A stretch of 57,016 nt of DNA. It comes from a virus. Its lineage: Duplodnaviria > Caudoviricetes. The stretch spans positions 1-57,016 of IMG/VR virus record IMGVR_UViG_3300033076_000232; one strand, written 5' to 3'. This document shows, piece by piece, positions 3,830 to 44,949 of the stretch. The position numbers and the translations under genes are program-made. Numbering within the stretch: the first letter of the stretch is position 1; every line of letters begins with the position of its first letter. Below the pieces are notes generated by a model. It did not search any database, was not told the DNA's origin, and was given only the letters and a program-made list of their open reading frames with translations.

Positions 3830-3832
3830 ACA

Positions 3833-4240
3833 TTACCACCCAGGACAATTCCAACGTTTAAGACTAGCGGCTTTACGAGTAAGCTCGCCTTTTTCATCGC
3901 GCTTAGGCCCGGGCATTCCAGACATTCTAGCGCAAAACGACGCTTTTCTTCCAGCATCAGCTTTTGTTTTTGGGTGCGGCGCAGGTGCTTTAAGATTCGA
4001 ACCGGTTGCGCGGTTGATCTTATCACGGCCTTTTTGAGTTAGTCCAGCCCCACGACTTGTAGGTAGTTTCTCACCACGAGAAACAGACAGTCTAGGCTCG
4101 CCGCCATCTTTCATCTTTTGCGCGCCCCGTTTTACCGAGTATGCAATGGCAACAGCCTGTTTAACAGGCTTGCCAGCTTTCACCTCAGTTGAGATGTTTT
4201 TCTTAAAAGCCTTGTCTGATTTGCTTTTAATTAAAGGCAT
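3833..4240 (-). CDS. Basic hypothetical phage protein (RKASFCARM...RWNC type)
   Basis: KQAVAIAYS and SFCARM motifs, typical of small basic head-region proteins. Confidence 0.75.
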
Positions 4241-4242
4241 GA

Positions 4243-4524
4243 TTAGCCGCAGAAAATTGAAACAGCCGCACCAGTGGGCAATGTTACGTGAATGTCTGTA
4301 TCGAATCGAATACCATTGCCGGGCAACAGCGTCGCAATAACAGCAGTATTAGTTGTGATGTTTACGCGCAAACGCACAGTTCCTGAAGCGCCACCGTCAC
4401 GAAAAACAATCTCACCCGCAGTACCGCCTGAAGCCAACTGATAGCCACCAATGTTTGTTGCGCCAGCGTAAATTGTGCCTGTTGCATCAGCATGCGCGTT
4501 AAATACATTCGTTAAAGTGCTCAT
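4243..4524 (-). CDS. Small putative virion protein
   Basis: 93-aa beta-rich ORF with an AAGGA RBS in the structural operon. Confidence 0.7.
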
Positions 4525-14900: not shown

Positions 14901-17245
14901 TCAAAAATGGCAACAGGCTCACCAGTAACAGTATCCCTAAAGCTTACCATTTGCGAGCCGTCTCTAACAGCGTTAATGTACGTTGTTCTAGGGCTCGTTG
15001 CATTAGGGTTTTTCTCGCCCGTAGCCACGTTGTAAATAGGCTCATACTGGCGATTGCCAGTGCCGGGGTGCCAAAGGTTAGGCCGTCCAGATGTAGTACC
15101 ACCTTCGCCAATACAGACATCCAACGCCGTAGTGTCCTCACTAACTAACTTGGCAACCTCATCAGGGGTAAACCGATCAGTAATTTCCAAAGCGCCAACA
15201 TTACCAAAGACTTTGTCATTAGGAATATGCGCATCAGCAGAACGTTTAAACTGCGTATCAACTGCATTCTTATACGCAGCTACTGCGGCTTGCTCTTTTC
15301 TCTCTTTGTCAATACGCTCTTCAGCTGTTTGGCGTATGTACTTTTCAACAGTCATCTTTGGCACTTTGTCCAAATGTATTTTGCGCGACATGACATCGTC
15401 ATAGAATTTGCGCGCAAGATCTTCAAAGCCAAGATTACGTAATTGTCTGACACTTGCAGTGTATGCACGCTCGTTGTCAGGTGTTCGCATTAACGATGGG
15501 TAGAACTGCTGCTCAGCATACTCCAATTCGTTTCGTAACTCTTGTGCGGTAGGCGCACTGATTGCTTGATCAACTGCATTCTCATACGCAGCGCCAAGTC
15601 GTAGATTGTCAACTAACTTTTGCTGCTTTTTATACGCCTCAGTTGCCTTAGCGGCTTCGCGTGATGCTTGTGCAAAAGGCTCGTATCTGCCAATGTTCAT
15701 GCCTTCGACTGGGCGGCCTGTATTAGGGTCAATTGCGCCATAACCTTGCGCAAGCCCTGCCGCCTGCTGTTCACGTGCATAAGCCGTAGCTTCAGTTGCT
15801 TGTTGGCGTAAGTCTTCTAATTGCTGATTCGCTGCGATAAGCGCTTCGTCAGTTGCTGTTTTAGCGGGCATACCAGCGTATGTACGCTTATTGCCTATAG
15901 CTCTACCTGACATGTCAGCCACGTTAAACACGTCCTCAGGCGGATTAAACGTCAAACCTTGCCCCGCCAACTTAGCAGCAGGCTCATTAGGGGTGCCAAC
16001 TTTTTCAAGGATGTAATTCGTAAATTGCGAGTTAAGCCAATTAGCAGCAGCTTCATGCATGGCAGGCAGTTCATCCGCTGACGGTAAGTCAAGTGCAGCT
16101 CTGAATTGTATGCCTTCCGGTGTTTGCAAGAACTCGTCATACATGCCTAATGTATGCGCAGCCGACGCTTCCCTGTCACTGAATCTAGCCTTGTATGCTT
16201 GCACCGCTTCAGCCGGCGTAGGTGCGTCTGGGTACATTTCAGCGGCTTTTTGCTTAATGAACTTCTCAAACGCCTTGCGTGCAGGGATGGCTTCAGGCAC
16301 AGCCAGGATTTTATTTTGTATTTCATCTAACGCCTGTAAGGGCGTCATAGTTGTGCTATCAATAACACTGCTGACAATGTCATACGCAGGTGAGTGTGTT
16401 GCAGAAGCTTGCTTCGCAGTTGCAGGCATCACAGCTGTTTGAAGCCTTGAGCCTTCAGGTCGCATAGCATACATTGGCTGCCCTGCCATTGCAGAAAGTA
16501 TTTCAGCTGATGTACCACCTTTAGCCAATATGTCTTGCACAATGGGGTCAAGCGCCTTTTCAACTCGCATGCCTGCCTGCGTAACTCCGCGTTCAGCTTG
16601 TCCAAGCCTAGAGCCCATTGTTGGCTGACCTGTGATTGGGTCTAACTTCTGCAGACCTGATTGTGCATTGGCAAAGTCTGTGGGGATATCGCGTACTTGG
16701 CGTCCAACCCTTGTGGCCTCAGCGCCCATAACCCGCAGATCATTAGGGGTAAATGCTGGGCGGCCGGTTTGCAGATGCCCAAGGTACGCGGGCAAGTCTG
16801 CCATGACAGGCGCGATCGCAGATGCGAATTCCTGTGTCAGCGGCGTTTGCGGGGCGTTGGCCTCCATGAACTGCTTGGCAACTTGCTCGGCGTATGCCGG
16901 TGCTTTGCCTGAAGTGTATGTGCCGCTTGGTGATGTGAGGATACTTTCACCAACGCCTTTGACCGCAGCAACTGCAGGCACGGTGACAATACCTGCTGCT
17001 TCACGCATGGACTTTGCCATCATCAGCGGATTGAACTTCGTTGCCAGCTGCGTGAAGTTGCCTGCTGCGGCTTCTAGTGGGTTGGCACTAGGCGGTGTTT
17101 GCGCTGGGGGAACAGGCCGGTCGTACCCGGGGATTTGAGAAGACAATGGCTGGTTCTTTTTGACCAGCTCCAGTTTCATTTGATCTAGACTAGGTGCGCC
17201 ATCATCGCCCACGTAGTTGCCTTGCTCGTCGTAGATTGCTGCCAT
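11951..17245 (-). CDS. Giant multidomain protein (1764 aa) with a PcfJ-like segment and a C-terminal DUF6973-like RH/HE/DxHNN domain
   Basis: Long uninterrupted ORF; LDVCIG...SFRD..GEP segment; DAARHMLAA...AHE...MDTHNNTIG. Confidence 0.75.
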   Translation of the reverse strand: MAAIYDEQGNYVGDDGAPSLDQMKLELVKKNQPLSSQIPGYDRPVPPAQTPPSANPLEAAAGNFTQLATKFNPLMMAKSMREAAGIVTVPAVAAVKGVGESILTSPSGTYTSGKAPAYAEQVAKQFMEANAPQTPLTQEFASAIAPVMADLPAYLGHLQTGRPAFTPNDLRVMGAEATRVGRQVRDIPTDFANAQSGLQKLDPITGQPTMGSRLGQAERGVTQAGMRVEKALDPIVQDILAKGGTSAEILSAMAGQPMYAMRPEGSRLQTAVMPATAKQASATHSPAYDIVSSVIDSTTMTPLQALDEIQNKILAVPEAIPARKAFEKFIKQKAAEMYPDAPTPAEAVQAYKARFSDREASAAHTLGMYDEFLQTPEGIQFRAALDLPSADELPAMHEAAANWLNSQFTNYILEKVGTPNEPAAKLAGQGLTFNPPEDVFNVADMSGRAIGNKRTYAGMPAKTATDEALIAANQQLEDLRQQATEATAYAREQQAAGLAQGYGAIDPNTGRPVEGMNIGRYEPFAQASREAAKATEAYKKQQKLVDNLRLGAAYENAVDQAISAPTAQELRNELEYAEQQFYPSLMRTPDNERAYTASVRQLRNLGFEDLARKFYDDVMSRKIHLDKVPKMTVEKYIRQTAEERIDKERKEQAAVAAYKNAVDTQFKRSADAHIPNDKVFGNVGALEITDRFTPDEVAKLVSEDTTALDVCIGEGGTTSGRPNLWHPGTGNRQYEPIYNVATGEKNPNATSPRTTYINAVRDGSQMVSFRDTVTGEPVAIFDFNPSSRTGRYNINFASGRRNGKIKPEYVEGIKSYLNSRADSIHDVGDNLYNTTGISDSERSTSTKLAGMINMPISEFAKYDLSNLPRFITTPELRNYIENLKANEPAVQTPAVMSQRPSESLEAYATGAMSSAIDNVLDSQRRAFVEAGEESRTTLAETFFADIRDYFNAYLNAQGPVQALVLTKQRLYDLESEYANSNRVAANIIAEGIQDLIDDLQGHIDYAIARQAAEANQRPRAVAQRGDPIPDNLDAEDILGRYRDRLTPEQQQYLQDFANRWSNTVHPNDVRALETEFNNWLQNNRLAPEGRPDYLRMTHDATMQLSREMGEEAGNEMSSIIRRITERQLIDPTQNTEQFIAALRERAEYADRGTVEIALNELADMMESEFMRDWEPEVAPVQQAAQPFDFTGAVDRITDGIAANLGGVISERFDTVAHRIAEQINPRLNPTGYAEALRRVNPALEHVAVVSGLNELADLIAPPTALRAADLDNQRNDRIIQVEDILNNPESDPNDLRAMAFAMSGMGNMHWAPLAENERRDYAQALRQRANYIEFNPRDFAQRLMDEEGPEHYDDAITLLENNQYDHEILRGLPPTERPRAAQATALEMSRLSLNEAYRRLNPNGVPPEPAMTPRQQAIAARVPQITDMLIEFSDDDPIRITADYRRVANILRDPRNAREFLENVMGVGDSLGDFTLRTTDLQRSTLSLVADELERRAEELGMQDQFEQALEYRAAAESVVNDLEEMYYSELDSPREAVRLIRQHLRALNRTGEEAFENIMGMASAGYEWSNSLLAALEIELNNLIDRYRAEGGFANGGPVRGYQKGGSVKADVPTPWLFSVPTYSETVAYEMYPGQKGQDDQRDAARHMLAAGTLSRKYGPGVAEFLGKAHEFTTSPLQAVKSVFGGKMPADYGMDTHNNTIGAQLGQRAKSQAELEDLVQEAAERASRTQTSDKAFIKKANGGIVQQNPTTDQMRYALMMRRK

Positions 17246-21897: not shown

Positions 21898-22857
21898 ATG
21901 GCACACTTAATCGCAAACACAATCTCCGGCAAAGCAGCAATGGCCTACGTTGGTGAGACCCCATGGCATGGTCTTGGCCAGCAGTTGACCAAGGACTCCA
22001 CCATTGAAACCTGGGCCGAGGAATCTGGCCTTGACTTCCAATTGGCTACAGCCGATGTGCAGTTCACTCCTCCAGCCAGCGTGTGGAACGGCTTCAAGGC
22101 TCAGGCCCTACCTTATGACGGCAAGAAAGTTATGTACCGCACCGACAGCAACATGCCTTTAGGCTTGGTGTCTAGTCAGTACAAGATTGTGCAGCCCATC
22201 GAGGTGTTGGAATTCTTCCGCGACATGGTCGGCAGTATTGCCCACCTCGAAACAGCCGGCGTCCTGCGTAATGGCGCGCATTACTGGGCCCTCGCCAAGA
22301 TGGATGGCGAGTTCAACATTGCAGGCGACAAGGTTAATCAATATCTCTTATTGGCCAGCTCCGCTGATGGCTCTCTGGCCACTCAGGCCCGCCTGACCAG
22401 CGTCCGCGTTGTATGCAATAACACTTTGCAGCTTGCACAGCGCGGCAAGGCCAACGTAAGTGTTCGTCATAACTCTATCTTCAAGCCCGAAGCCATCAAG
22501 GCTGAGTTGGCCAACAGCAACGAGGCCTTCAAAACCTTCGAGCAAACTGCCAAGGCTTTGGCATCTATCAAACTCGGTTCCGCCAAGGCTCAGAGCATCT
22601 TCACATCTATCCTCGGCGGTGATGAAAAGAACCCCTCACGTGCTGCAGCACGAGCCTTGGCTCTTTTTGAAGGTGCAGGCATCGGCGCTGAGTTGGAATC
22701 TGCCAAAGGTACAGCATGGGGCGCTTTGAATGCCGTGACTCAGCTGATGGATTGGGAAACAGCCCGCACCGGCGATGCTCGCTTGGCCAATGCTTGGTTC
22801 GGCGGCGGTGTTAATGTCAAGCAGCAAGCCGTTGAGGCCTTGTTGGCCTTGGCGTAA
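21898..22857 (+). CDS. DUF932 / phage-plasmid-like protein (TIGR03299 type)
   Basis: MAYVGETPWHGLG, ETAG.L..G, VRVVCNNTL, GTAWGALNAVT motifs. Confidence 0.88.
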   Translation: MAHLIANTISGKAAMAYVGETPWHGLGQQLTKDSTIETWAEESGLDFQLATADVQFTPPASVWNGFKAQALPYDGKKVMYRTDSNMPLGLVSSQYKIVQPIEVLEFFRDMVGSIAHLETAGVLRNGAHYWALAKMDGEFNIAGDKVNQYLLLASSADGSLATQARLTSVRVVCNNTLQLAQRGKANVSVRHNSIFKPEAIKAELANSNEAFKTFEQTAKALASIKLGSAKAQSIFTSILGGDEKNPSRAAARALALFEGAGIGAELESAKGTAWGALNAVTQLMDWETARTGDARLANAWFGGGVNVKQQAVEALLALA

Positions 22858-23687: not shown

Positions 23688-23931
23688 ACATGACTACATC
23701 TTGGATCACATGGGCCTTGACAATTGGCAAGAAGAATGGGGCGATGGCGATATACTTCGCAACATTGTTGTTGAGTATACTGTCGCTCGCGATGCTACTC
23801 ACAATGAGCCGGCCGAATTTGATTTTTGCGTTACCTTGGATGGCGTAGACGTTACCGATACGCTCAATGGCGCAAACAGAGAAGCATTTGAATCACTGAT
23901 GCGCAAAGAATACTATGACCGCAAATACTAA
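23677..23931 (+). CDS. Acidic hypothetical protein
   Basis: ATG at 23677 after AGGT; fills the operon gap. Confidence 0.6.
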   Translation: MQTEHDYILDHMGLDNWQEEWGDGDILRNIVVEYTVARDATHNEPAEFDFCVTLDGVDVTDTLNGANREAFESLMRKEYYDRKY

Positions 23932-24352
23932 TCACACCATGCAAATGACCAACTCAGAAAAAGTATTGGCATTCCGTCGCAAGATGGGCCTGCCCTTATC
24001 AAACACACCAACCTTGCTCACACCCGAGCAATCCAGTTACTTTGCTCGCTTCATCATGGAAGAGCTTAGTGAGTACCTTCGTGCTTGTGAGGAGAATAGC
24101 CTTGTTGACGCTGCCGATGCTTTGGTTGATCTTTGCTACGTCACAATGGGCTGTGCACATGCTATGGGCTTACCTTTTGATCAGCTTTTTAATGTGGTGC
24201 ATGAGGCCAACATGAACAAAGAGCCCGCCAATGACTACATCAGGTCGGTGCGCGGCTCTCAGTACGACGTTGTCAAGCCTATTGGTTGGCAAGCCCCCGA
24301 GGCCATGATGTTGGCCATCATTCAAACCGAGCAACAGAAAGCAAAGCCATGA
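23915..24352 (+). CDS. MazG-like / PRA-PH-like nucleotide pyrophosphohydrolase
   Basis: EELSE...DALVDLCYV...VHEANMNK...VKP.GW.AP motif set. Confidence 0.82.
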   Translation: MTANTNHTMQMTNSEKVLAFRRKMGLPLSNTPTLLTPEQSSYFARFIMEELSEYLRACEENSLVDAADALVDLCYVTMGCAHAMGLPFDQLFNVVHEANMNKEPANDYIRSVRGSQYDVVKPIGWQAPEAMMLAIIQTEQQKAKP

Positions 24353-30972: not shown

Positions 30973-32350
30973 ATACCAAAAAGAAGCTGTAAAGTTTCTG
31001 GTTGAAAAAGGCTCAGCTGCGTTGTGGTTGGACCCTGGGCTTGGCAAGACGGCTATTGTTTTGTCGGCCTACCGGACTTTACGGCTCAAAGGCTTGGCCA
31101 AGAAAATGTTGGTCATTGCACCGCTCCGGCCTGTGCATGGCGTTTGGCCACCCGAGGCCAAGAAGTGGGAACAGTTTGCCGATTACTCGGTCGGCGTTTT
31201 GCATGGCGGCAACAAAGGCAAAGTGCTAAAGCAAAACCACGACATTTATGTCATTAACTTTGAAGGCCTTGGCTGGCTGTCTTCGCAACTCAATGGCAAA
31301 GATTGGCCCTTCCAGATCCTGACGGTGGATGAGATATCTTATATGAAAAACACGCAAACCCAGCGGTTTAAGACAATAAAACCTTTGCTTGATAAGTTTG
31401 ACCGCCGCTGGGGCTTAACCGGCTCTCCAGCCCCTAACAGTTTGCTTGACATTTTTGGGCCTCAGCTGATTCTGGACCAAGGTGCTACCTTTGGACCTTA
31501 CATCTCACGATTCAGAACTGAGTACTTCTACCCTTCCGGCTACGGCGGGTATGAGTGGAAGCTGCAATCCGATGGGGAGGCTAGGATCCACGCTGCCTTG
31601 GATGGAAAAGTACTTCGTATGGCAGCGCTAGACCATCTAGATTTGCCCGAGTTAACTTATAACGACATTATGGTAGATCTACCACCTAATGCCAGAAAAT
31701 TGTACGACGCCTTTGAAAACGACCTGACCGTGGAATTGAACAGTGGCAATGTAACAGCTGTCAACGCCGCCGTGGCCGTGATGAAAGGCCAACAAATTGC
31801 CAATGGTGGCTCATACTTGGATGATGACGGGAGTGGTAATGCTAGAATCACAACGCACCTTCATGATGCGAAGACTGAAGCGGTTCTTGATCTGGTCGAG
31901 GAGCTATCGGGCCAACCTTGCATCATTGGCTATCATTTCGCGCATGACCTCGAGAGGCTTAAAGCCGCCTTTCCTAATGCGCCTATCATTGGCAGTGGCG
32001 TTATTGGTCATAAACTCGATTCTATTATTGATGATTGGAACGCCGGTAAGACACCAATTCTTTTGGCTCACCCAATGTCGGCGGGTCACGGCCTTAACTT
32101 ACAAGGTACTGGTCATGCTGTCATCTGGTACTCGCTGACTTGGAGCCTTGAGGTCTATGAGCAGTTTATTCGCAGACTCTGGAGACAGGGTCAAAAGAAT
32201 CATATCGTAGTCCACCACATTATGGCCAAGGACACTGTGGATGAAGCCATTATGATGGCCATCCGCCGGAAAGATAAAACGCAGCAAACTTTATTGAATG
32301 CTGTGCGTGATTACATTAAACGTGATACAATCGAGACTGTTGATTATTGA
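30953..32350 (+). CDS. SNF2-family helicase
   Basis: DPGLGKT, VDE, GLTGSP, AGHGLNLQ, Q...RL.RQGQ. Confidence 0.9.
   Translation: MFWEPHEYQKEAVKFLVEKGSAALWLDPGLGKTAIVLSAYRTLRLKGLAKKMLVIAPLRPVHGVWPPEAKKWEQFADYSVGVLHGGNKGKVLKQNHDIYVINFEGLGWLSSQLNGKDWPFQILTVDEISYMKNTQTQRFKTIKPLLDKFDRRWGLTGSPAPNSLLDIFGPQLILDQGATFGPYISRFRTEYFYPSGYGGYEWKLQSDGEARIHAALDGKVLRMAALDHLDLPELTYNDIMVDLPPNARKLYDAFENDLTVELNSGNVTAVNAAVAVMKGQQIANGGSYLDDDGSGNARITTHLHDAKTEAVLDLVEELSGQPCIIGYHFAHDLERLKAAFPNAPIIGSGVIGHKLDSIIDDWNAGKTPILLAHPMSAGHGLNLQGTGHAVIWYSLTWSLEVYEQFIRRLWRQGQKNHIVVHHIMAKDTVDEAIMMAIRRKDKTQQTLLNAVRDYIKRDTIETVDY
32320..32331 (+). promoter_or_regulatory. Extended -10 promoter candidate ahead of the modification cluster
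   Basis: ACGTGATACAAT (TGn-TACAAT), matching ACGTGATATAAT at 35374; TTGAAAGG RBS downstream. Confidence 0.45.
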
Positions 32351-32363
32351 AAGGAATACACGA

Positions 32364-32636
32364 ATGCAACATACCCCTATTGTCGAAAGACCTAACCCTA
32401 TCCAACAGGAAGATACTGACATGTCAGAAGCTAAAACACGTGCTCGCGCAAACAAAAAAGCCATCATTACTCTTGTGACCGCCCCTAACCCAAAGCGTAA
32501 CGGCACTTTGGCACGTGAGCGTTATGAGTTGTACCGTGTTGGCATGACCGTTGCTGAGTACATTGCAGCTGGTGGCCGTTCAGGTGACGTGAACCATGAC
32601 ATTGCCGAGGGCTACATTGCCGTAGCATTGCCATGA
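32364..32636 (+). CDS. Small conserved phage protein (NPKR...GMTV.EY motif), possibly DNA-binding
   Basis: NPKRNGTLARERYELYRVGMTVAEY...D..EGYI; alternative start at 32421. Confidence 0.65.
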   Translation: MQHTPIVERPNPIQQEDTDMSEAKTRARANKKAIITLVTAPNPKRNGTLARERYELYRVGMTVAEYIAAGGRSGDVNHDIAEGYIAVALP

Positions 32637-33544
32637 ATATCTTAATTTCCGGCGTCACGGAGACGCATACCAACCATCCACAACGTGCCAGCTCTACCAA
32701 GTTTGTCTCAATCCCAGAGTTGATGGCAAATGCTTTTGGCAGGCTTGGCCACCATGTTGATCATCGTGCTGTCACGCCCGGTGAGGACCTCTCCCGATAC
32801 GATAAAGTCTTTGTGTACCTATACCCCTTGGACCACAATGCTTTAGATCCCGAAGGCGCTCTATGGGCTTTGGAAAGCCGCTTTGATGCATACATTTGCC
32901 TTGATGACTGGGCCTTCCAAAAGATCCTACCATCGTGGGAAAACAAGATTGCGCCTGAATCACTGTGTGAGCATACATGGATTGCTCCATTATTTCCATG
33001 GGGTGATACCAAGGCTATGGGCCTGCCCGTAGAAAATATCATTGCATGGGATCCAAGCCCGCTGTATGAGATGCCTGCCGTGCATCAAATGTCGTGGGAT
33101 CGCCGCAAAACAGAATGGTACAACGCCTCACTTTCAAAGGATGCACATGACTGGGCTACAGCTCAAAACCTCACATGGCCAATTCACAGCGTCGGTGGTA
33201 AGTCGCTCGGCCAGCCTAGAATCTTGGAGTCCGACGTCGTCTGGCAATATGGTTCGTATAAGGGTGTCCTTTGTCCTACGTATCGACACGCAGGCTCTGG
33301 TTGGTGGCGTGTCCGATACTTGCACGCTGCTCATGCAGGATGCGTTCTTGGTGGAGACCCCAAAGAGCTCGGAGTCATTGACCCATCATACGCTTACACA
33401 CTCCGTGAATTAGAAAACATGGATGATGAACAGCTGCAGCTAACGGCGGCGCAGCAAGCAACTTACTTGCGTGTTGCAACGCTTGAAGACACACTATCAA
33501 AACTTGAGGGTATCTTAAATGATCGTAATTCTAGAAGGGGCTGA
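32633..33544 (+). CDS. Putative GT-B fold glycosyltransferase (DNA/nucleotide modifying)
   Basis: N-terminal MNILISG...L...GHHV Rossmann start, DDW motif, C-terminal GVLCP.Y..GSGWWR.RY..A..AG donor-binding-like segment; context with kinase and TS homologue. Confidence 0.6.
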   Translation: MNILISGVTETHTNHPQRASSTKFVSIPELMANAFGRLGHHVDHRAVTPGEDLSRYDKVFVYLYPLDHNALDPEGALWALESRFDAYICLDDWAFQKILPSWENKIAPESLCEHTWIAPLFPWGDTKAMGLPVENIIAWDPSPLYEMPAVHQMSWDRRKTEWYNASLSKDAHDWATAQNLTWPIHSVGGKSLGQPRILESDVVWQYGSYKGVLCPTYRHAGSGWWRVRYLHAAHAGCVLGGDPKELGVIDPSYAYTLRELENMDDEQLQLTAAQQATYLRVATLEDTLSKLEGILNDRNSRRG

Positions 33545-34466
33545 TGGCGGGGGTAAGACTACCCTTGCTGAGACCTTGCGACAACGATTGCAAAAAGAAA
33601 AGATGACCCACGTGGTAAAGCACGGTCCTTACAAAGGTATGAATACCGAGGACCTTTGCCGTACCTATTTTCGTGGTATTACGCAGGCCTTGACCTATGA
33701 TGATCATGTCATTATGGATAGGTCATGGCTGTCCGAGCCAATCTATGGCAACGTCTATCGTAATGGTGAAAACCGAATCGATATGCCGCGCCGTAGAATG
33801 TTGGAACGTGCAGCTTTGGCTCGTGGCGTTGTGGTCATTCATTGCCAACCGGACTTTGAGGTTTGCATGCAGACATTCAAAAGCCGTATTGCCGATGAGT
33901 ACTTGGACAATATCAAGCAGTTGGAGCAAGTGTATGAAGGCTACTCAACATTGCCAATGGATACCTCTCTGCCGGTCATCACCTATGACTACACCAAAGA
34001 TGATATTGAAGAGCTATTCATCAAACTTGCAACCAAGTCAATTACAAACAAATCATCCGGTGGCGGTGCCTTTGCCGAAGGCAATACACTGATGCTTTGC
34101 GACAAGGGCCCTCGTACAAATGTCAGGTCAACCGCAGCCGTGGTGCCTTTCATTAACTTCTTGGACAATGATGGCCCTAGCCGTATGTTGGCTGAAACCT
34201 TGGAACGTGAGAATGTGCCTGAAACCAGCCTGTACTGGGTCAACACACAAACTTACCAAGGCACACCAATGGACGCCGGTTTTATCAAGCAATTAAAGCC
34301 TTCACGCATCTACGCACTTGGCAACAACGCGTATGCTTGGGCCTTGAACAACGCCGTGCCTGTGATTAAACTGCCCCCGCCTTTGTATCACATGCAGCAT
34401 TACCCCGATCAACCTTACCTTATTACGGAGTTAGACCATGGAAATTACGATTCGCAACGAGCCTGA
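33519..34466 (+). CDS. dNMP (thymidylate-type) kinase fused to a C-terminal UDG-fold-like domain
   Basis: ILEGADGGGKTT P-loop and MDRSWLSE..YG; C-terminal YWVN...KPSRIYALGNNA...LPPP pattern. Confidence 0.75.
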   Translation: MIVILEGADGGGKTTLAETLRQRLQKEKMTHVVKHGPYKGMNTEDLCRTYFRGITQALTYDDHVIMDRSWLSEPIYGNVYRNGENRIDMPRRRMLERAALARGVVVIHCQPDFEVCMQTFKSRIADEYLDNIKQLEQVYEGYSTLPMDTSLPVITYDYTKDDIEELFIKLATKSITNKSSGGGAFAEGNTLMLCDKGPRTNVRSTAAVVPFINFLDNDGPSRMLAETLERENVPETSLYWVNTQTYQGTPMDAGFIKQLKPSRIYALGNNAYAWALNNAVPVIKLPPPLYHMQHYPDQPYLITELDHGNYDSQRA

Positions 34467-35220
34467 GCTAATCAGCCTCTATAAAGTATTACACCAAATG
34501 GGCAGGTGGACAAGCCCACGCGGTGAAAAGTGCCTTGAGATTGAAAACTTTACTTACACTGTCAATCCGTTTGTAAGGTTCAACTCTTTCAAAGGCCGCA
34601 ACTTCAATGTGAAGTACCTTAAGCGCGAAATGGCTTGGTACATCAAAGCTGATCCACGTGATCTTAGCATTGCCGAGCACGCAGCTCAGTGGGGCAAGAT
34701 CGTTGCCAATGGCAAGTTAAATAGCAACTACGGCAGCTACTGGTTTGGCCCACATGGCGCCCTGCATATTGCAAAGCTGCTAACGCAGGATCCAATGTCC
34801 CGCCGAGCTGTGATTCCTATGTACGGCACTGACACTGACCATATGGATATTGAGGCAAAAGATGTTCCATGCACTCTGGCCATGGAATTCCGTATCCGCG
34901 ATGGTCGATTAAGTGTACGTGCTATCATGCGCAGCCAAGATATTCTTTGGGGCATGGCAAATGACTTGCCAACTTTCAGCTTCCTGCAGGAAATCGTGGC
35001 CAACTTGGTCGGCGCTGAGATGGGAACCTTAACAGTGTCGGTTGGATCTTTCCACGTGTATGAGTCACGCCTTCACATGTTCAACGAGATCATCAACACC
35101 AACTTGCATATTCCAGTGGAAGACGCACCGCCCCGCATTAACCGCTATGAAGCCCACATTTTGGCAGGCAAATCCATCAATCCTACTTTCGAGTTTGCAA
35201 AATGGCTATTGAACGTGTAA
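34438..35220 (+). CDS. Thymidylate-synthase-family enzyme, dCMP hydroxymethylase-like
   Basis: REMAWY, NSNYG, SRRAVI, DVPCT (catalytic Cys), MRSQDILWGMAND (Asp at the base-specificity position, as in T4 gp42), GSFHVY. Confidence 0.85.
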   Translation: MEITIRNEPELISLYKVLHQMGRWTSPRGEKCLEIENFTYTVNPFVRFNSFKGRNFNVKYLKREMAWYIKADPRDLSIAEHAAQWGKIVANGKLNSNYGSYWFGPHGALHIAKLLTQDPMSRRAVIPMYGTDTDHMDIEAKDVPCTLAMEFRIRDGRLSVRAIMRSQDILWGMANDLPTFSFLQEIVANLVGAEMGTLTVSVGSFHVYESRLHMFNEIINTNLHIPVEDAPPRINRYEAHILAGKSINPTFEFAKWLLNV

Positions 35221-35407: not shown

Positions 35408-35438
35408 CTTTGTAAATTGACTATTGAAAGGAATTGAA

Positions 35439-36146
35439 ATGAAAGCAAAAATACGCTGGACTGAACGCGAACGCGACTTGGTTATTATGACAGCCGTGGA
35501 GTATTACAACTCAGGCACTTACACGCCAATTGCAGCTTTGCGGCAAGCACAAATTGTGTTGTCGCCTGAACGCCGTCGTAGTATGCAAAGCCACTCTGCA
35601 GTGCCTGACTTGCTTAAAGAGCTTAAGGTACGCGCCATGCAGGATGTGCCAAGACGCAAGGATGTAGAAACTACCAAACCTGTGGAAATAATGCCTCCAG
35701 TGCCACAAGAAGTGGTAAAAACCGATGCACCAGTTGATCTCGTTGATCAGTTGGTGAATAGTATTACACAACGATTCATTTTGGGGCTTCGTGAAAGCCT
35801 GCAATCTGCTGTTAGAGAGCTTGAGCATGAGTTCAAAGTGGAAAAGCATAACCCAACCTATGCAGCCGCAGGCACCAAGTTGCCAAAGGTTATCATCATC
35901 GGTTTGCTAGGTGATCAGGTCCATGCTATCACCCGCGAGTTCTCTGACCGCTACGACGTAAAATGCATTGACACAGATCGTGCCATGGGTATGAACCCAC
36001 CAGATGCTGATGCCTATCTTCTTATGAAGAACTTCATCAACCATCCGCTGTACCATAAGTACCAAGCCTTCCCCAATCACGTTTTGATTGATGGTGGCAT
36101 GTCAACACTTCGCATGTGGCTTAACACTAAAGGAAAAGACCTATGA
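35439..36146 (+). CDS. Hypothetical protein (N-terminal WT..E helix motif, C-terminal DUF2325-like alpha/beta domain)
   Basis: ATG after TTGAAAGG; RWTERE; KVIIIGL...KNFINH...GGMSTL. Confidence 0.65.
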   Translation: MKAKIRWTERERDLVIMTAVEYYNSGTYTPIAALRQAQIVLSPERRRSMQSHSAVPDLLKELKVRAMQDVPRRKDVETTKPVEIMPPVPQEVVKTDAPVDLVDQLVNSITQRFILGLRESLQSAVRELEHEFKVEKHNPTYAAAGTKLPKVIIIGLLGDQVHAITREFSDRYDVKCIDTDRAMGMNPPDADAYLLMKNFINHPLYHKYQAFPNHVLIDGGMSTLRMWLNTKGKDL

Positions 36147-39220: not shown

Positions 39221-40198
39221 TTAAGACTCCCACTCTAGTTGAGTAATGTCACTAGGCATGCCAACTTTGCTATCAAGCTGAAAGTTGTTCCACAGATTGG
39301 TAACCCCTGTGCCAATGGCTTTTCCAAATGGCGTATTGCTTACACCACCAATGATGGAGCCTAAGCCTGCAATCTGCTGTAATGGCGAGGCAGCGTAAGC
39401 ACCAGGAATTGGGCCTGTGTAAGTATTATCTACTGTGGTTGGCACGTTGTAGCCACGCAGTGCTTGTGCGCCCAGATTTAATGCCGTCAATGGGAACAGC
39501 TCAGCGTTCTGATTGATAGTCTGCTGCTGGCCGCCTAGTGTAGCCAATGCGTTAATGTCCGCCAAATTAGCCGCTTGGCCTGCTGTGGCAAGACTGCCAT
39601 ATTGCTGAGCTGCGTTTAGCTTTTGCGTTTGGTCAGCCTGCGCCGCGCGCAATGCTTCAGTATAACCTTGCTGCAATGCCTGTGACTGCGCAGCTTGCGT
39701 ATTTGCTAAGCCTGTGTTAATGGCTTGGCCCAGTACCTCGGCGCCACGCTTAGATCCAAATTGGCCAGTGCCAACTGCAGACGCAGTAGCCTGTGGTGCT
39801 AAGAATTGCTGAATATTCCGTTGCCCCAACGCGCCAAGTGCATCCACAACCTGCGTTGTGTAGGGGTTCATAAACTGCTCAACGCGACTTTGGCCATTAG
39901 CAATTGGCAAGCCTGTCTTTGGGTCTACAGGCTTTGCGGTAATATCGGCTTGTCCAATATTACTTGTTGCCTGCAGTGCGCGGTCAAAGTACCCGGGGTA
40001 CGTATTAGTCGTTGTTGCAGCTTTTTCAAAAGCCGCAGTTTGCAACGGCTGCGCATTTGCGTAACTTGCACCAGAGATGCCTGTCGTAACGCCTTTGGCT
40101 AAGTTGCTTAGATAATCAGTGTACCAAGACGGCGCAGAAGTTACTTGACTCTGCGTCGTGGTGATATTCGGTAGGGGATCACCTTGCATTAAACTCAT
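39221..40198 (-). CDS. Putative DNA-pilot/ejection protein
   Basis: FMNPY..QV, GQFGSKR, SPLQQIAGLG motifs; Q/A-rich. Confidence 0.6.
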   Translation of the reverse strand: MSLMQGDPLPNITTTQSQVTSAPSWYTDYLSNLAKGVTTGISGASYANAQPLQTAAFEKAATTTNTYPGYFDRALQATSNIGQADITAKPVDPKTGLPIANGQSRVEQFMNPYTTQVVDALGALGQRNIQQFLAPQATASAVGTGQFGSKRGAEVLGQAINTGLANTQAAQSQALQQGYTEALRAAQADQTQKLNAAQQYGSLATAGQAANLADINALATLGGQQQTINQNAELFPLTALNLGAQALRGYNVPTTVDNTYTGPIPGAYAASPLQQIAGLGSIIGGVSNTPFGKAIGTGVTNLWNNFQLDSKVGMPSDITQLEWES

Positions 40199-43100
40199 TT
40201 TATGCCTTTCAAATACGACAGGGGTGACTTAGCCTTTGGAGGTATTTTACCTACTGGGGCTGATCGCTTATGTTTTCTTATGCTTTCACGCATTTTATCC
40301 AAAACTAGGGCTCCAGCCTTATTTGAGCCGTTGCCCAATGCTGCAACAGTGTCAGCATCAAACACGTATTCGCCATCCGCCAACATGGCCGGAATGCTGT
40401 CCGATTGACCATCACCTGCGCCTTGCACGTAATTGCCGGTCTTTCCGGTGATAAACTCGGGAATATGTTCAACCTGACCGCCTCTAGCATACCCTGTCAG
40501 AGGACTGCCGCCTAAGTACTTTAGGCCCGACGCCGTTAAGCTGCCAGTGTCATAGCCCGGGATGACAGTGCTATTGTCATTGCCTTTTACGGGATTCCCG
40601 GGCGATGGGGTACCAGCAAGTCGTGAGCCTACAAAGTCTGTGCCCTCATCTGTAGGCGTGAATTGTGATGTTGCAGGTTGAATTCTGCCTGTCAAAACTT
40701 GCAGTAGCTTGGGGTCTACATTGGCCAGCTGTGGATAAAGTTGCGTGAGTTGTGTCATTCCAGATACGTCCTTGACTGGCGCGCCAGCCAGCATTGTAGG
40801 CGTCAAAGTTCCGGGCAACGCGCCCGTGCTTGTTGGCGTCGTGATTGCGCCTAACGCCCCAGACTGCTGTTGCGGTGTTGGCGTTGGTGTTGGCGTTGTT
40901 GGCGTTGGTGTTGGCGTTGTTGGCGTTGTTGGCGTTGTTGGCGGCGTAGTCGTAATTGTAGGCGGCACTTCAGGCGGCACAATCGTATCAGTTGTGGTAG
41001 TAACTAGAGGCGGCGTAGGCGTTGTCCCTATGGGCGTTGTAGGCAACGCGCCTGTAGGTATTGTCAGCGTTGGAAGATCAGCGTTAGTTGTTGGCGTGCT
41101 TACAACGGTTGGGTTGCTTGTAACAGTTGGTGTTGTAGTAACTGTTGGCGTTGCAGTAACTGTTGCTAACGGGTTAGTTAAGACAGTTGGGTTGCTTGTA
41201 ACCGTTGAAACCGAAGTAACATTGGCATTGGCGGCAGCAGCAGCGTCGGCAGCGGCTTTAGCATCAGCAACAGCCTTGGCATCTGCAGCGGCTTTTGCGT
41301 CGGCAGCAGCCTTGGCATCAGCGGCAGCCTTAGCTGCGGCCATTGCGGCTAAAGTACTATTTGTTGTAGACGTAGTTGTAGTTGTTACGTTGGCTGCGGT
41401 AGCCGCGTCAGCGGCAGCCTTAGCATCTGCGGCAGCCTTAGCATCTGCGGCAGCCTTAGCATCTGCAGCAGCTTTTGCGTCAGCTGCGGCCTTAGCATCT
41501 GCGGCAGCTTTTGCGTCAGCTGCGGCCTTAGCATCAGCAGCAATTTGCGCAGCAGTAGCAGCATCAGCGGCAGCTTTTGCGTCAGCAGCAGCCTTAGCAT
41601 CTGCGGCAGCCTTGGCATCAGCAGCAACTTGTGCGTCCGCGGCAGCCTTAGCAGCAGCATCTGCGGCAGCCTTAGCAGCGGCATCAGCTGAGGCTTTAGT
41701 AGCAGCATCCGCGGCAGCAGCAGCGTCGGCAGCAGCTTTAGCGTCGGCAGCGGCCTTAGCAGCAGCAGCGTCAGCTGCAATCTTGGCGTCTGCTAAAACC
41801 TTAGCGTCAGCAGCAGCTTTGGCTGCGGCGGCATCAGCAGCAACTTGAGCTGCAATGGCAGCGTCAGACGCAGCCTTGGCATCAGCGGCAGCTTTGGCAA
41901 CGGCAGCAGCTGTAGTGGCAGCTTGGGCATCAGCGGCAGCTTGCAAGGCAACATCAACTGCGGATTGGCCACTTGTAGTGGCTGCTACCGTAGCGCCTGT
42001 CCCAACTGTTGATAGCGCCCCAGTGCCGGTTGTTGCTGCAGCGCCTGTATCTGCTGCTGTTGCGCCAGCTGTTGTAGTTAATGCCCCAGTGCCGGTTGTC
42101 GCTGCAGTGCCTCCACCAACGGTTGATAGAGCGCCTGTATTGGCAGTGGCAGCAGCTGTGTTCTTTGATGCAACCGCCGCACTGACATCGGCTAGACTCA
42201 AACCAGCTTCTGCCATTGCAGCGCCAACTTCAGCCTGCGATGCGCCTGGGTGATCAGCTAACCAAGAGTTGATGCTTTCATAAACTTGATCTTGTGAGAT
42301 GTTGTTCTCTTGCGCCCATTTCATACCTGCGCTTGAAAGATCCAAGTTTGAATTGGCGTTGCCAATATTGGCCAAAGTTTGCGCGCCGGTATCGCTAACT
42401 ACAGACTGCCCTGTTGCTGCGTCAACTAATGAGGTAACATTGCCTGAGCCATCAGTGGATGCAATCCCAGACTTGCTAAGCTCTTCATTAAGTGTGGCGT
42501 TTGCCTCAGCAACAATGTTTTGAATGTTTGAAACTTCAATAGAGGATGAGGTTTTACCTGCAACAAGGCCTTCAACCACGCCTTGTGTAAGTGACTTGTT
42601 GATATTTACTGGTCGGCCTAGAGCAACATCTGTCAATACGTCGGTTGTAAACGCCTCAATAAGATCGGATGTACCTTCTTTTGTAAAGCTAGAGCCCGCC
42701 TTGGTTGTTGCCTTGCTAAGTGCATTGCTAACCTTATTGATCAGCGCCGTATCTGTAACACCGCCTGTAGCCACAGTAACCGCGGCTGCAATTTCAAATG
42801 CGGTTGTTGCCTCGGCTTCAGCTTGTGCAAGTGTTTTATTTGCCGCCAAAGCCTCACGCAGTTTATCATTATATGCAGCACCGCCGGACTCCATGGCATT
42901 CAATGCAACATCGGTGCCTACAGCAGCAAACTTGCCTGCGTACTTAAGCACTTTTATGCCTAAGCCAATTGGCAAACCTTCCTGAAGAACTTCAATTGCA
43001 GCCATATTAAGAGACTGCGGATTGTTATACACTGCTTTTACGCCTGCAACAATTTTATTGCCTAGCCCTTGCGCGTCATTGACAGCTTGAATAACATTTT

Positions 43101-44949
43101 GATTGGCTTGGTTAACAGACTCAAGCTGTAAAGCCTCACCTGCGCGTGTAATACTTTGACCCGCATTGGTCAATGCATTAACTGGGCCCGTAAGACCAAT
43201 GGCAGACGCTGTGCCGCCAAGGAACTCGTTGATCTGCCCAGTGGCTTGTGCAATGTTTGATAAGCCTTGCTGCGCAATTGCGGCAGCTGTGGTGCCTTCC
43301 CCAAAGAGGGAGTTGATGGCGTCTTTAGCTGCGTTTGCTGTTTGCGTAGCTTTGGCTAAACCTAAAGCGTTATTTTGCTCAAATAATCTTTTAGACTCAG
43401 CACTAGACTCAGTGGTGTTAGCATTAGCCAGCGCGGCGTTTTGGTTAGCCAACCGCTGTGTTTCGGCGTTGGATTGCTGTACTGTAAGATTAGGCGTTTG
43501 CAAAGCGCCAATGGTATTGCCTAAGGCGTCTGTTGTTGCAGAGCCCGACCAATAGTCATTGGCTGAGGCGTTCAATACGTTATTGGCGCTTGTCAATGCT
43601 GCAGTATTTTTAGCTGCCAACGCACGTGCTGTGGCGTCATTTTGCGCAGCAACTGTTTGCGACGCGTCTGTTACTGTAGATAAGTTAGCTGCATTTAGCG
43701 CGTTAATCTTGGCGTTTGCTGCAGCTTGTGCTTCTTCGGCCGTGCCTGTTGTATACGTGCCTGTTACGCCTGTTGCGGGGTTTGTCCACTCAAAAGTTCT
43801 ATTAGGGCCAAACGCTAAACGGTTAGCTGCAAACGCGTCATTAAATGAGGTGGCCTTATTACCAGCAGCTGCGTTAGCGGCAACGGCTGCGTCGTAGTTA
43901 CCAAACTCATCAGTGTAGTTGCCTGCGTCAACCAAAATGTTAGGCATACCAGTGATGGTGCTTAAGGCGCCGCCACCGTCGGTAATTGAAGATGTAATGT
44001 CTTTAGTTGCAAGGTTAGATACTGCGGTAGAACCACTAGTTACGGCTGCGTTATTTTGCAACTGATTGACAACATTGGTTGCGGTAGCTTGGTTAGAGCC
44101 GGTGGCATTAGCAAAAGTCTTAGCCGCAGCATCTAAATTGCCGGTAGTGGTTAGCGTAGCAGCAGCAGCGCCTAATGCCTTATTGCCTGTCTCTTCTGTA
44201 ACGGTTGTGCCTACAACAGATCCAATAATAGAAGCGCCTACATTATCTAAGTTGCCTGTTACTGCGGCGTTAGATACCGTTGTTGCGGCGTTATTGATAA
44301 CCTTCTGCATGAAAGGGTCATCTACAACGCCTGACAACGCGTCCACCACTGTGTCATTCACCACTGACCCCAGAGCGCCTGTTACTTGCGACTTAATTGT
44401 GTTTTCCACAATCTTATCTAATGGCGTGCCCTGTGCTACTTGCAATGCTGCATTGGCAATAGCAGTGCCGGTTGCAGTAGATACACCGAGTGTTGCAGCA
44501 ATTTCAGCGCCTACGACAGGCAAAAAGTATGCTGATGCTAGAGCAACAATATCTTTTAAGCCGCTATCAACTTTTTGAGTAACACCAGTTCGCTCATACG
44601 TGCCATCAGCGCCTAATTGTGTATACGTCGAGCCAACAGGCGCTTTGTAGTTTACGTCGCCCGTAGTTTTGTCTACAAAAATATTTTGCAACGCGCCAAT
44701 TTGCTGATCTTCGCCAGAGCCAATAACTTGGTAGCTAGGCACAATACGGGTATCGCCTAGCGTGATGGAAGAGCCTTGCGGGACTGTAGCCGCAGCACGC
44801 GCAATAATCTCATTAACAGATGTTCCGGTAGCCGCAGCCATTTGCGCAGGTGAAACACCGTACGTGGCCATGTTAGACGCAATCTCTGCGTCACTCATGC
44901 CGGGATTAGCGGTTAAAAAATCAAGAATCTGTTGATTGGTAACTGCCAT
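40195..44949 (-). CDS. Large low-complexity virion protein (1584 aa) with AKAAAD repeats and C-terminal GDGQSDSIPAMLADGEYV domain
   Basis: Uninterrupted ORF; Ala/Thr-rich; conserved C-terminal domain. Confidence 0.75.
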   Translation of the reverse strand: MAVTNQQILDFLTANPGMSDAEIASNMATYGVSPAQMAAATGTSVNEIIARAAATVPQGSSITLGDTRIVPSYQVIGSGEDQQIGALQNIFVDKTTGDVNYKAPVGSTYTQLGADGTYERTGVTQKVDSGLKDIVALASAYFLPVVGAEIAATLGVSTATGTAIANAALQVAQGTPLDKIVENTIKSQVTGALGSVVNDTVVDALSGVVDDPFMQKVINNAATTVSNAAVTGNLDNVGASIIGSVVGTTVTEETGNKALGAAAATLTTTGNLDAAAKTFANATGSNQATATNVVNQLQNNAAVTSGSTAVSNLATKDITSSITDGGGALSTITGMPNILVDAGNYTDEFGNYDAAVAANAAAGNKATSFNDAFAANRLAFGPNRTFEWTNPATGVTGTYTTGTAEEAQAAANAKINALNAANLSTVTDASQTVAAQNDATARALAAKNTAALTSANNVLNASANDYWSGSATTDALGNTIGALQTPNLTVQQSNAETQRLANQNAALANANTTESSAESKRLFEQNNALGLAKATQTANAAKDAINSLFGEGTTAAAIAQQGLSNIAQATGQINEFLGGTASAIGLTGPVNALTNAGQSITRAGEALQLESVNQANQNVIQAVNDAQGLGNKIVAGVKAVYNNPQSLNMAAIEVLQEGLPIGLGIKVLKYAGKFAAVGTDVALNAMESGGAAYNDKLREALAANKTLAQAEAEATTAFEIAAAVTVATGGVTDTALINKVSNALSKATTKAGSSFTKEGTSDLIEAFTTDVLTDVALGRPVNINKSLTQGVVEGLVAGKTSSSIEVSNIQNIVAEANATLNEELSKSGIASTDGSGNVTSLVDAATGQSVVSDTGAQTLANIGNANSNLDLSSAGMKWAQENNISQDQVYESINSWLADHPGASQAEVGAAMAEAGLSLADVSAAVASKNTAAATANTGALSTVGGGTAATTGTGALTTTAGATAADTGAAATTGTGALSTVGTGATVAATTSGQSAVDVALQAAADAQAATTAAAVAKAAADAKAASDAAIAAQVAADAAAAKAAADAKVLADAKIAADAAAAKAAADAKAAADAAAAADAATKASADAAAKAAADAAAKAAADAQVAADAKAAADAKAAADAKAAADAATAAQIAADAKAAADAKAAADAKAAADAKAAADAKAAADAKAAADAKAAADAATAANVTTTTTSTTNSTLAAMAAAKAAADAKAAADAKAAADAKAVADAKAAADAAAAANANVTSVSTVTSNPTVLTNPLATVTATPTVTTTPTVTSNPTVVSTPTTNADLPTLTIPTGALPTTPIGTTPTPPLVTTTTDTIVPPEVPPTITTTPPTTPTTPTTPTPTPTTPTPTPTPQQQSGALGAITTPTSTGALPGTLTPTMLAGAPVKDVSGMTQLTQLYPQLANVDPKLLQVLTGRIQPATSQFTPTDEGTDFVGSRLAGTPSPGNPVKGNDNSTVIPGYDTGSLTASGLKYLGGSPLTGYARGGQVEHIPEFITGKTGNYVQGAGDGQSDSIPAMLADGEYVFDADTVAALGNGSNKAGALVLDKMRESIRKHKRSAPVGKIPPKAKSPLSYLKGIK
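40865..40945. repeat. GTTGGC/GTTGGT tandem repeat encoding a Pro-Thr linker
   Basis: ggcgttggtgttggcgttgtt repeated. Confidence 0.85.
41230..41945. repeat. Degenerate 18-bp tandem repeat encoding (AKAAAD)n
   Basis: gcagccttagcatctgcg-type units. Confidence 0.85.

Follow-up and report, generated by a model that had tools for sequence, protein, structure and literature searches.

A phage deoxynucleotide kinase fused to a reduced, probably non-glycosylase uracil-DNA glycosylase-fold domain in a candidate cytosine-replacement pathway

The 57,016-base virus record IMGVR_UViG_3300033076_000232 (Duplodnaviria; Caudoviricetes), analysed here as a whole IMG/VR record (completeness estimate, 85%) and referred to as the window, encodes a 315-amino-acid (aa) protein in which a deoxynucleoside monophosphate (dNMP) kinase is followed by a tail of the uracil-DNA glycosylase (UDG) superfamily. 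This protein is probably a 5-hydroxymethyl-dCMP (5hm-dCMP) kinase that has retained a UDG-fold module, itself probably not a glycosylase, within a cytosine-replacement pathway. The homology, fold, motif states, conservation and gene context are observed, and from them we infer the loss of activity of the tail, the substrate and the present role. The open reading frame (ORF) and its parts are as follows.

33519..34466, + strand: kinase and UDG-like fusion ORF, 315 aa (full-length AlphaFold2 model)
33519..34028, + strand: P-loop dNMP kinase domain of the YorR/thymidylate-kinase type, residues 1-170 (PF02223, phrog_761 and YorR matches)
34044..34433, + strand: minimal UDG-superfamily domain, residues 176-305 (profile homology, AlphaFold2 fold and Foldseek)
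34089..34112, + strand: degenerate motif A, LMLCDKGP, residues 191-198 (family consensus LLVG[DE]xPN)
34146..34151, + strand: Pro210-Phe211, the Phe aligning with the uracil-stacking Phe of family-4 UDGs
34230..34244, + strand: LYWVN, residues 238-242, Asn242 aligning with the uracil-reading Asn
34314..34331, + strand: ALGNNA, residues 266-271, aligning with the UDG ALG..A strand-helix turn
34371..34385, + strand: degenerate motif B, LPPPL, residues 285-289 (family consensus VPHPQ, then YWKRF)

A sequence-only reading had placed a degenerate UDG-like domain behind the kinase at positions 34060-34466, which correspond to residues ~181-315 of the fusion ORF. All of the strings that it quoted were found in the translation: LMLCDKGP at residues 191-198, PF at 210-211, SRMLAETL at 221-228, LYWVN at 238-242, KPSRIYALGNNA at 260-271 and VIKLPPPLY at 282-290. 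Taken by itself, this motif resemblance lacks statistical significance. When residues 176-315 were searched alone, Pfam yielded no match at E<=10, and the PDB sequences retrieved at the same threshold were non-UDG noise (best E=1.1). PF03167, the UDG family, matched no part of the record at E<=1. In 50,697 phage records, tblastn with the tail detected nothing at E<=1e-3, and megablast of the region gave no match. A profile restricted to the clade of the window (A1, 11 sequences) also retrieved no UDG from the PDB, only HypA at E=0.16.

Homology of the tail emerged through its relatives. A search of 1.84 billion cluster representatives (clustered at 50% identity) with A1 returned 313 matches at E<=1e-3, 69 at E<=1e-10 and 2 at E<=1e-30, nearly all of them proteins of 240-327 aa in which the matched part was C-terminal. 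From 149 of the 150 matches listed, those 116 that matched at least 100 profile positions were aligned with the window sequence (117 rows, referred to below as the 117 representatives), yielding the family consensus N.GPG.G.F.PG..LLVG[DE]xPN..PF..GCSxWL..E..LYWINA..L.P..IIALG..A..WC..VPHPQYWKRF..PYPL. Alignment of A1 with 26 canonical sequences by hhalign ran end to end over 125 columns (probability 99.9%, E=7.7e-35), and 34 of 64 family members scanned singly matched PF03167 at E<=1, the best at 7.1e-9. A domain-only profile of 32 sequences (A3) identified family-4 UDGs or UdgX in 27 of its 29 PDB matches at E<=1 (best E=1.5e-3); 1l9g, 1vk2 and 1ui0 were matched at E=1.5e-3 to 2.4e-3, with the alignments in register at VGE.PG, PF, Y..N, ALG..A and HP. 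In the ESM Atlas, 23 of 30 matches led to viral clusters with PF03167 in 18-36% of their members.

The predicted structure agrees with these profiles. AlphaFold2, run without templates on the A3 alignment with the window domain as query, gave a model with a mean predicted local distance difference test (pLDDT) score of 82.9 and a predicted template-modelling (pTM) score of 0.78, with elements in the order beta-alpha-beta-alpha-beta-alpha-beta-alpha, consistent with the alpha/beta fold around a four-stranded parallel sheet that characterises the superfamily. The first 34 PDB matches listed by Foldseek for this model were all family-4 UDGs or UdgX, followed by SMUG1 and poxvirus D4; the best was 1ui1 (E=1.2e-4), query-normalised TM-scores (TMq) ranged from 0.49 to 0.56, and seven matches were at E<=1e-3. 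Among the viral predicted structures of BFVD, the top two matches were members of the same family (TMq 0.70-0.71), and the next were phage UDGs, Bacillus phage G gp315 and UDG-like domains of phage polymerases. The domain comprises ~125 residues, and the A3/PDB alignments indicate that loops were cut down after the Asn strand and before motif B; beyond the domain, pLDDT falls below 50 at residues 311-315.

As transitive profile homology and the predicted fold concur, the resemblance of the tail to UDGs represents real homology and not a chance pattern. The earlier UDG assignment therefore holds by way of relatives and fold, while the motif match on which it was first based would not have sufficed. 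Structure prediction followed by a Foldseek search had been proposed as its test, an unrelated fold being the outcome that would speak against it; as family-4 UDGs and UdgX were instead the top matches, the fold is considered UDG-like. That the tail is of an unrelated fold and resembles UDGs by accident is scarcely credible: the empty Pfam, PDB and clade-only searches are what such an accident would produce, but profile homology and fold converge on the UDG superfamily, and hhalign and Foldseek already contradict it. By profile and model, the tail is a stripped-down UDG-superfamily domain derived from family 4, with shortened loops and without the Fe-S cysteines.

The two catalytic motifs of the domain have degenerated in the window clade. 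At motif A, the Gly is replaced by Cys194, Asp195 is retained, and hhalign places three inserted residues (LCD-KGP-RTN). At motif B, Pro287 takes the place of the His, after which YHMQH stands where the family has the basic YWKRF. A survey of homologues for an intact HP, suggested in the sequence-only reading, found H-P in 108 of the 117 representatives and G-[DE] together with H-P in 99, whereas the window has C-D together with P-P. The base pocket is better preserved. Phe211 and Asn242 align with the corresponding Phe and Asn of 1ui0 and 1l9g (by count along the alignment, the counterpart of Phe211 in 1ui0 is F54); PF is retained in 92-93% of the 117 representatives and Asn in 99%. Asp195, Phe211 and Asn242 are invariant within the window clade. 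In the UDG of Sulfolobus tokodaii, as described in the text of PMC11078745, F55 stacks on uracil and N82 reads its Watson-Crick face. A figure legend of the same article shows an Fe-S cluster in the family-4 structure 4ZBY; the 140 residues of the tail contain a single Cys, C194, and therefore cannot form the four-Cys 4Fe-4S site of family 4.

Despite these losses, the domain shows no decay and evolves as slowly as the kinase. Among 12 clade sequences, the domain was 74.9% and the kinase 69.8% identical at the amino acid level, and the ratio of mean dN to mean dS (nonsynonymous to synonymous substitution rates) was 0.086 and 0.111, respectively, both values being rough because dS was saturated (~1.9) and few of the 66 pairs (14 and 23) could be used. 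The isoelectric point (pI) of the domain was 5.2-7.15 in the window clade, compared with a median of 8.4 in 108 canonical domains, 62% of which lay above 7; as the canonical interquartile range is 6.3-9.1, the gap is modest, and the lower pI of the clade can be taken as a modest hint of weaker DNA binding.

In a quick IQ-TREE analysis of 141 domains, in which many forks were unresolved, the window clade (support of 97 in the approximate likelihood-ratio test SH-aLRT) was sister (91) to a second His-less clade with the motif pattern LCSKW...QP (99), and both were nested among canonical fusions. A single, early loss of the His is the simplest reading of this arrangement. Sequences P0082, P0089 and P0081, used as entry points to the context of the sister clade, had no relatives in viral contigs, and P0082 had none in metagenome contigs. 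The association of His loss with absence of a deaminase gene (see below) accordingly comes from one clade.

The main rival to a non-catalytic tail is a glycosylase that is still active with altered chemistry or specificity, a His-less, MUG-like enzyme acting on U, on 5-hydroxymethyluracil (hmU) derived from deaminated 5-hydroxymethylcytosine (hmC), or on mismatched T, and so repairing or policing modified phage DNA. The invariance of Asp195, Phe211 and Asn242, the strong purifying selection and the clade's own invariant pocket-side residues would all fit such an enzyme, and standalone relatives that lie beside gp32 and RecA/UvsX genes in two of four loci fit a DNA-directed ancestral role. Against it stand the Pro in place of a motif-B His that is otherwise nearly universal in the family, the change of WKRF to YHMQH, the replaced Gly and three-residue insertion at motif A, and a domain that is acidic to neutral where canonical domains are mostly basic. 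We regard an active glycosylase as unlikely, though it is the competitor to be taken most seriously.

The kinase half of the protein is intact in sequence. It matched Pfam PF02223 (E=3.4e-8; 33.8 bits against a cut-off of 27) and, over residues 1-168, phrog_761 (E=1.1e-25), in agreement with the earlier proposal of an N-terminal kinase. The best solved relative of the family profile was YorR of the SPbeta prophage (2axp/3kb2, E=1.2e-12), and Foldseek with the full-length model likewise ranked YorR 3kb2 first (E=1.5e-7; target-normalised TM-score, 0.77), followed by thymidylate and deoxynucleoside kinases. The P-loop (GADGGGKT), the DRSW..E..YG motif, Glu73 and the lid arginines Arg93 and Arg97 have been retained. 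The domain is best explained as an active dNMP kinase of the YorR/thymidylate-kinase type. Judging from the neighbouring gene, the kinase most likely makes 5hm-dCDP from 5hm-dCMP, the expected product of the overlapping hydroxymethylase-type enzyme. The full-length AlphaFold2 model had a mean pLDDT of 94.0 and a pTM of 0.92, values that suggest a single rigid two-domain body.

Such a body would also suit a kinase of DNA bases resembling 5-HMUDK, in which the dead UDG fold would extrude a 5-hydroxymethylated pyrimidine from the helix and offer its hydroxyl to the kinase, priming hypermodification. The P-loop kinases called 5-HMUDK are described in PMC5889632 as phosphorylating 5-hmdU in DNA and as having glycosylase-fold partners. 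They serve here solely as a mechanistic analogue; membership of that group would be marked by sequence and by co-occurrence with aGPT-PPlase, which has an HhH glycosylase fold. According to the text of PMC13326640, phages RB69, DLP3 and RL38J1 possess, within their cytosine hypermodification clusters, a YorR/thymidylate kinase (TMK)-like kinase besides the gp1-like one shown to make 5hodCDP, which leaves room for another role of the additional kinase. Furthermore, Arg93 and Arg97 persist in 25 of 27 and 27 of 27 relatives with a dead P-loop. Weighing the other way, the kinase carries the thymidylate-kinase DR..E..YG motif and its closest structures are mononucleotide kinases, Asn242 would read a uracil-type and not a cytosine-type face, the tail is not basic, and no second dNMP kinase for 5hm-dCDP turned up in the window, where no dedicated search for one was made. 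A DNA base kinase is accordingly quite improbable.

The assignment of a pathway rests on the genes around the fusion ORF, which lies in a same-strand module of replication and nucleotide genes. The module contains a MazG/PRA-PH pyrophosphohydrolase (23915-24352), a family-A DNA polymerase, an exonuclease and a helicase, after which come a 112-aa ORF, a 303-aa ORF, the fusion ORF and a thymidylate synthase (TS) homologue. The fusion ORF shares 26 nt with the end of the 303-aa ORF and 29 nt with the start of the TS homologue. The neighbours that bear on the pathway are as follows.

23915..24352, + strand: MazG/PRA-PH-type nucleotide pyrophosphohydrolase, 145 aa (PF01503 E=4.2e-17; phrog_671 E=1.7e-23)
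32633..33544, + strand: upstream ORF, 303 aa, phrog_14998 (PHROG match)
34438..35220, + strand: TS homologue, 260 aa, with a dCMP hydroxymethylase signature (PF00303 E=1.1e-18)

The best PDB matches of the TS homologue were MilA CMP hydroxymethylase (E=1.1e-20) and T4 dCMP hydroxymethylase (gp42; E=9.8e-13). In E. coli ThyA numbering, the diagnostic substitutions given in the text of PMC13326640 are N177D for a dCMP substrate, L143D/E for a hydroxymethyl product and D169N for a 5-hydroxy-dCMP synthase. The window homologue has Asp at positions 143, 169 and 177 (KDVPC, RSQD and MAND), the signature of 5hm-dCMP formation. A 5-hydroxy-dCMP synthase was rejected, position 169 being Asp and not Asn, and a dUMP-specific enzyme was rejected on account of Asp at position 177. 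Asp177 was present in all 29 TS neighbours listed, and Asn169 in two of them (L065:3103-3870 and L085:6451-7161), each beside a canonical kinase/UDG fusion; the fusion thus also accompanies chemistry of the 5-hydroxy-dCMP synthase type. A complex prediction of the full fusion with two copies of the TS homologue, run without controls, gave a score of 0.00 and a mark of 0.32 and speaks neither for nor against binding. The MazG/PRA-PH-type protein, 9 kb upstream of the fusion ORF, is likely the counterpart of a dCTPase.

The 303-aa ORF had no Pfam or NCBIfam match and no PDB relative. In the ESM Atlas, 5 of 30 matches led to clusters in which 12% of members carry Glyco_trans_1_2 (PF13524), a weak glycosyltransferase lead, so that the protein could be the enzyme decorating hmC. 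Among the loci examined, this ORF co-occurred only with the degenerate-motif clade. This pairing of a degenerate domain with a possible glycosyltransferase would fit an anti-defence decoy or shield, in which the dead UDG fold would protect the phage genome by covering modified bases or by binding Brig1- or Ung-type glycosylases of the host; DNA containing glucosyl-hmC is a target of UDG-superfamily enzymes from the host, among them Brig1, as reported in PMC11078745. A stoichiometric DNA shield would not need rigid fusion to a metabolic kinase, however, and the tail is not basic. We consider such a function very improbable.

The sequence-only reading had also suggested that the tail could read or proofread the modified or deaminated base, or channel nucleotides. 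Asn242, the uracil-type residue, is retained at the position occupied by Glu in Brig1, which excises a modified hmC according to PMC11078745, and reading of hmC or glycosyl-hmC by the tail is therefore unlikely.

Other ORFs of the window are recorded here for completeness. The 112-aa ORF (32298-32636, +) and a 240-aa ORF (35424-36146, +) had no family match and accompany the degenerate-clade cassette across related loci. A DUF932 protein (21898-22857, +; PF06067 E=3.4e-52) is the first gene of the same-strand early module, and the minus strand carries two very long ORFs, 11951-17245 (1764 aa) and 40195-44949 (1584 aa).

Across the family, the two domains behave as parts of a mosaic. At least 140 residues precede the UDG-like domain in 104 sequences (103 representatives and the window). 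An intact P-loop, together with near-invariant D67, R68, E73, R93 and R97, was kept in 77 of these. The other 27 were without a P-loop and mostly without the DR motif, retained R93 (25/27) and R97 (27/27), and nearly all had canonical UDG motifs. One sequence, P0081, lacked both the P-loop and the motif-B His. The canonical domain also occurred as a standalone ORF in 26 viral loci, some on contigs of 345-390 kb, and none of these loci had a TS, MazG or deaminase gene closer than 5 kb. In two of the four standalone loci annotated, it lay directly upstream of gp32 and a RecA/UvsX gene (L060:4971-5444 and L062:4914-5384, on T4-like and jumbo phage contigs). At another standalone locus, L055, an Acb1 anti-CBASS homologue (3791-4366) was located two ORFs upstream. 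The existence of dead-kinase, standalone and degenerate-UDG forms indicates that either domain can persist or be silenced without the other.

Gene neighbourhoods differed between the canonical fusions and the window clade. At 21 canonical fused loci, several of which are near-duplicates, the TS homologue was adjacent in 20, and a dCMP deaminase and a MazG gene were found within 5 kb in 19 and 14, respectively; the same cassette order is annotated in phages AXL3, PW916 and MW202621. The fusion of the window clade is preceded by the 112-aa and 303-aa ORFs and followed by the 240-aa ORF, and a dCMP deaminase was detected neither in the window nor in five clade records, of which two are 99-100% complete. 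Among phage isolates, tblastn at E<=1e-5 detected the family only in AXL3, PW916 and the jumbo Ralstonia phage RsoM2USA (standalone form), where the genes are annotated as thymidylate kinase or hypothetical.

The scheme favoured here is as follows. The overlapping dCMP hydroxymethylase-type enzyme would yield 5hm-dCMP, which the fusion kinase would then phosphorylate, as T4 gp1 does. Canonical relatives, with a complete-looking uracil-type pocket, probably act on uracil-type bases in DNA, their domain probably removing such bases where the phage's own deaminase raises the dUMP pool. The window and sister clades most likely go back to an early, single loss of the motif-B His; in the window clade, the motif-A Gly is also Cys and WKRF is gone. 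The retained tail could now contribute to the 5hm-dCMP kinase by binding bases or nucleotides, or as an integral structural element. As the catalytic hallmarks were lost while the domain remained as constrained as the kinase and is predicted to pack rigidly against it, the tail is read as a retained non-catalytic module and not as an efficient DNA glycosylase. The earlier suggestion of a UDG fold that is inactive or repurposed is thus upheld for the superfamily fold, by AlphaFold2 and Foldseek; its inactivity or repurposing is plausible, because His and WKRF were lost while selection stayed strong.

A more specific version would make the tail a dead pyrimidine reader attached to the kinase, either channelling or specifying the 5-substituted nucleotide or flipping a hydroxymethylated DNA base for phosphorylation. 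We hold this to be improbable. If it were correct, a pathway of DNA modification would have co-opted a DNA-repair fold to bind bases without hydrolysis, and the whole family would be a mosaic allowing one or the other domain to be inactivated, with active kinase plus canonical UDG, dead kinase plus canonical UDG, UDG alone, and active kinase plus degenerate UDG as its forms.

Several observations weigh against a retained non-glycosylase module of a 5hm-dCMP kinase. Asp195, Phe211 and Asn242 are all kept, so the pocket could still work, and UDGs of the MUG/TDG type function without a motif-B His. The clade-specific stretches LCDKGPRTN and KLPPPL.H.Q are strongly conserved, a pattern more readily explained by a new, specific function than by simple scaffolding. 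No UDG was matched by the window domain alone or by the clade-only profile, the AlphaFold2 input alignment included canonical relatives, and the Foldseek TM-scores were moderate (~0.5, with a root-mean-square deviation of ~5 Å); the moderate scores can be attributed to the size of the domain, ~125 residues compared with ~200 in solved UDGs. The saturated dS, the modest charge gap and the near-duplicate canonical loci reduce the force of the respective comparisons, and the link between His loss and the absence of a dCMP deaminase represents a single evolutionary event.

Familiar from textbooks as repair proteins, UDG-fold enzymes have, since Brig1, also been recognised as anti-phage weapons. 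The present analysis reveals that phages carry an extensive branch of the fold, with 313 representatives at 50% identity, which is almost always joined to a nucleotide kinase and located beside a cytosine-modifying TS homologue. As the glycosylase hallmarks have gone from the window protein while selection has been kept, it is a natural test case for a non-excision role of the fold. Since such genes are now labelled only as thymidylate kinases, the role of the domain also affects how phage cytosine-replacement pathways are annotated. Furthermore, it bears on how phages exclude or tolerate uracil-type bases in modified DNA.

Among known systems, the best profile and fold matches of the tail family were family-4 UDGs and UdgX, represented by structures from Thermus thermophilus (1ui0/1ui1), Thermotoga maritima (TM0511; 1l9g/1vk2), S. 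tokodaii (4zby) and Mycobacterium smegmatis (UdgX; 6ail). The window domain and the family-4 UDGs share, in the same order, an N..G.G hairpin, motif A, PF, Y..N, ALG..A and motif B. Family-4 enzymes are 190-210 residues long and carry G-E-x-P-G and H-P-S, whereas the window domain of ~125 residues has C-D-K-G-P and P-P-P, one Cys and shortened loops and is fused to a kinase.

The whole protein has counterparts in the canonical kinase/UDG-like fusions of phages, for example gp29 of Stenotrophomonas phage AXL3, annotated as a thymidylate kinase, which has the same two domains (~30% identity over 99% of the length) and, like the window protein, is encoded immediately ahead of an Asp177-type TS homologue. 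AXL3 gp29 keeps VGE..PF..WVNA..VPHPQYWKRF, whereas the motifs of the window clade are degenerate. The AXL3 cassette reads MazG, kinase/UDG, TS and dCMP deaminase; the window clade has no deaminase and other flanking genes. AXL3 DNA was resistant to all 35 enzymes tested that have G/C in their sites, as stated in the text of PMC7504290.

For the kinase half, the YorR/TMK-like kinases RB69p045, DLP3 gp78 and RL38J1 gp214, related to YorR of Bacillus subtilis SPbeta, are the known counterparts; in the text of PMC13326640 they are placed near a dCMP-specific TS homologue and glycosyltransferases. RB69p045 (182 aa) consists of the kinase only, without a UDG-like tail, and is 22% identical to the window protein over 93 aa (E=0.001). 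The words "UDG", "fused" and "fusion" are absent from the text of that article (Lee 2026, PMC13326640), and no description of a kinase/UDG fusion was found in the literature covered, which comprised articles without their supplementary files.

With the hmC pathway of T4 (gp56 dCTPase, gp42 and gp1), the window would share the logic of a pyrophosphohydrolase, a dCMP hydroxymethylase-type enzyme and a dNMP kinase. The window kinase differs in belonging to the TMK/YorR family and not to that of gp1, and in carrying a UDG-like domain, which T4 is not known to have.

Finally, Brig1 provides a second case of a UDG fold in the setting of modified cytosine. In the text of PMC11078745 it is described as a UDG-superfamily host anti-phage enzyme that excises alpha-glucosyl-hmC, has a family-4 UDG as its closest structure and reads the base through Glu147. 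By that published description, Brig1 and the window domain differ at the base-reading position itself, where Brig1 has Glu147 and the window domain keeps the Asn.

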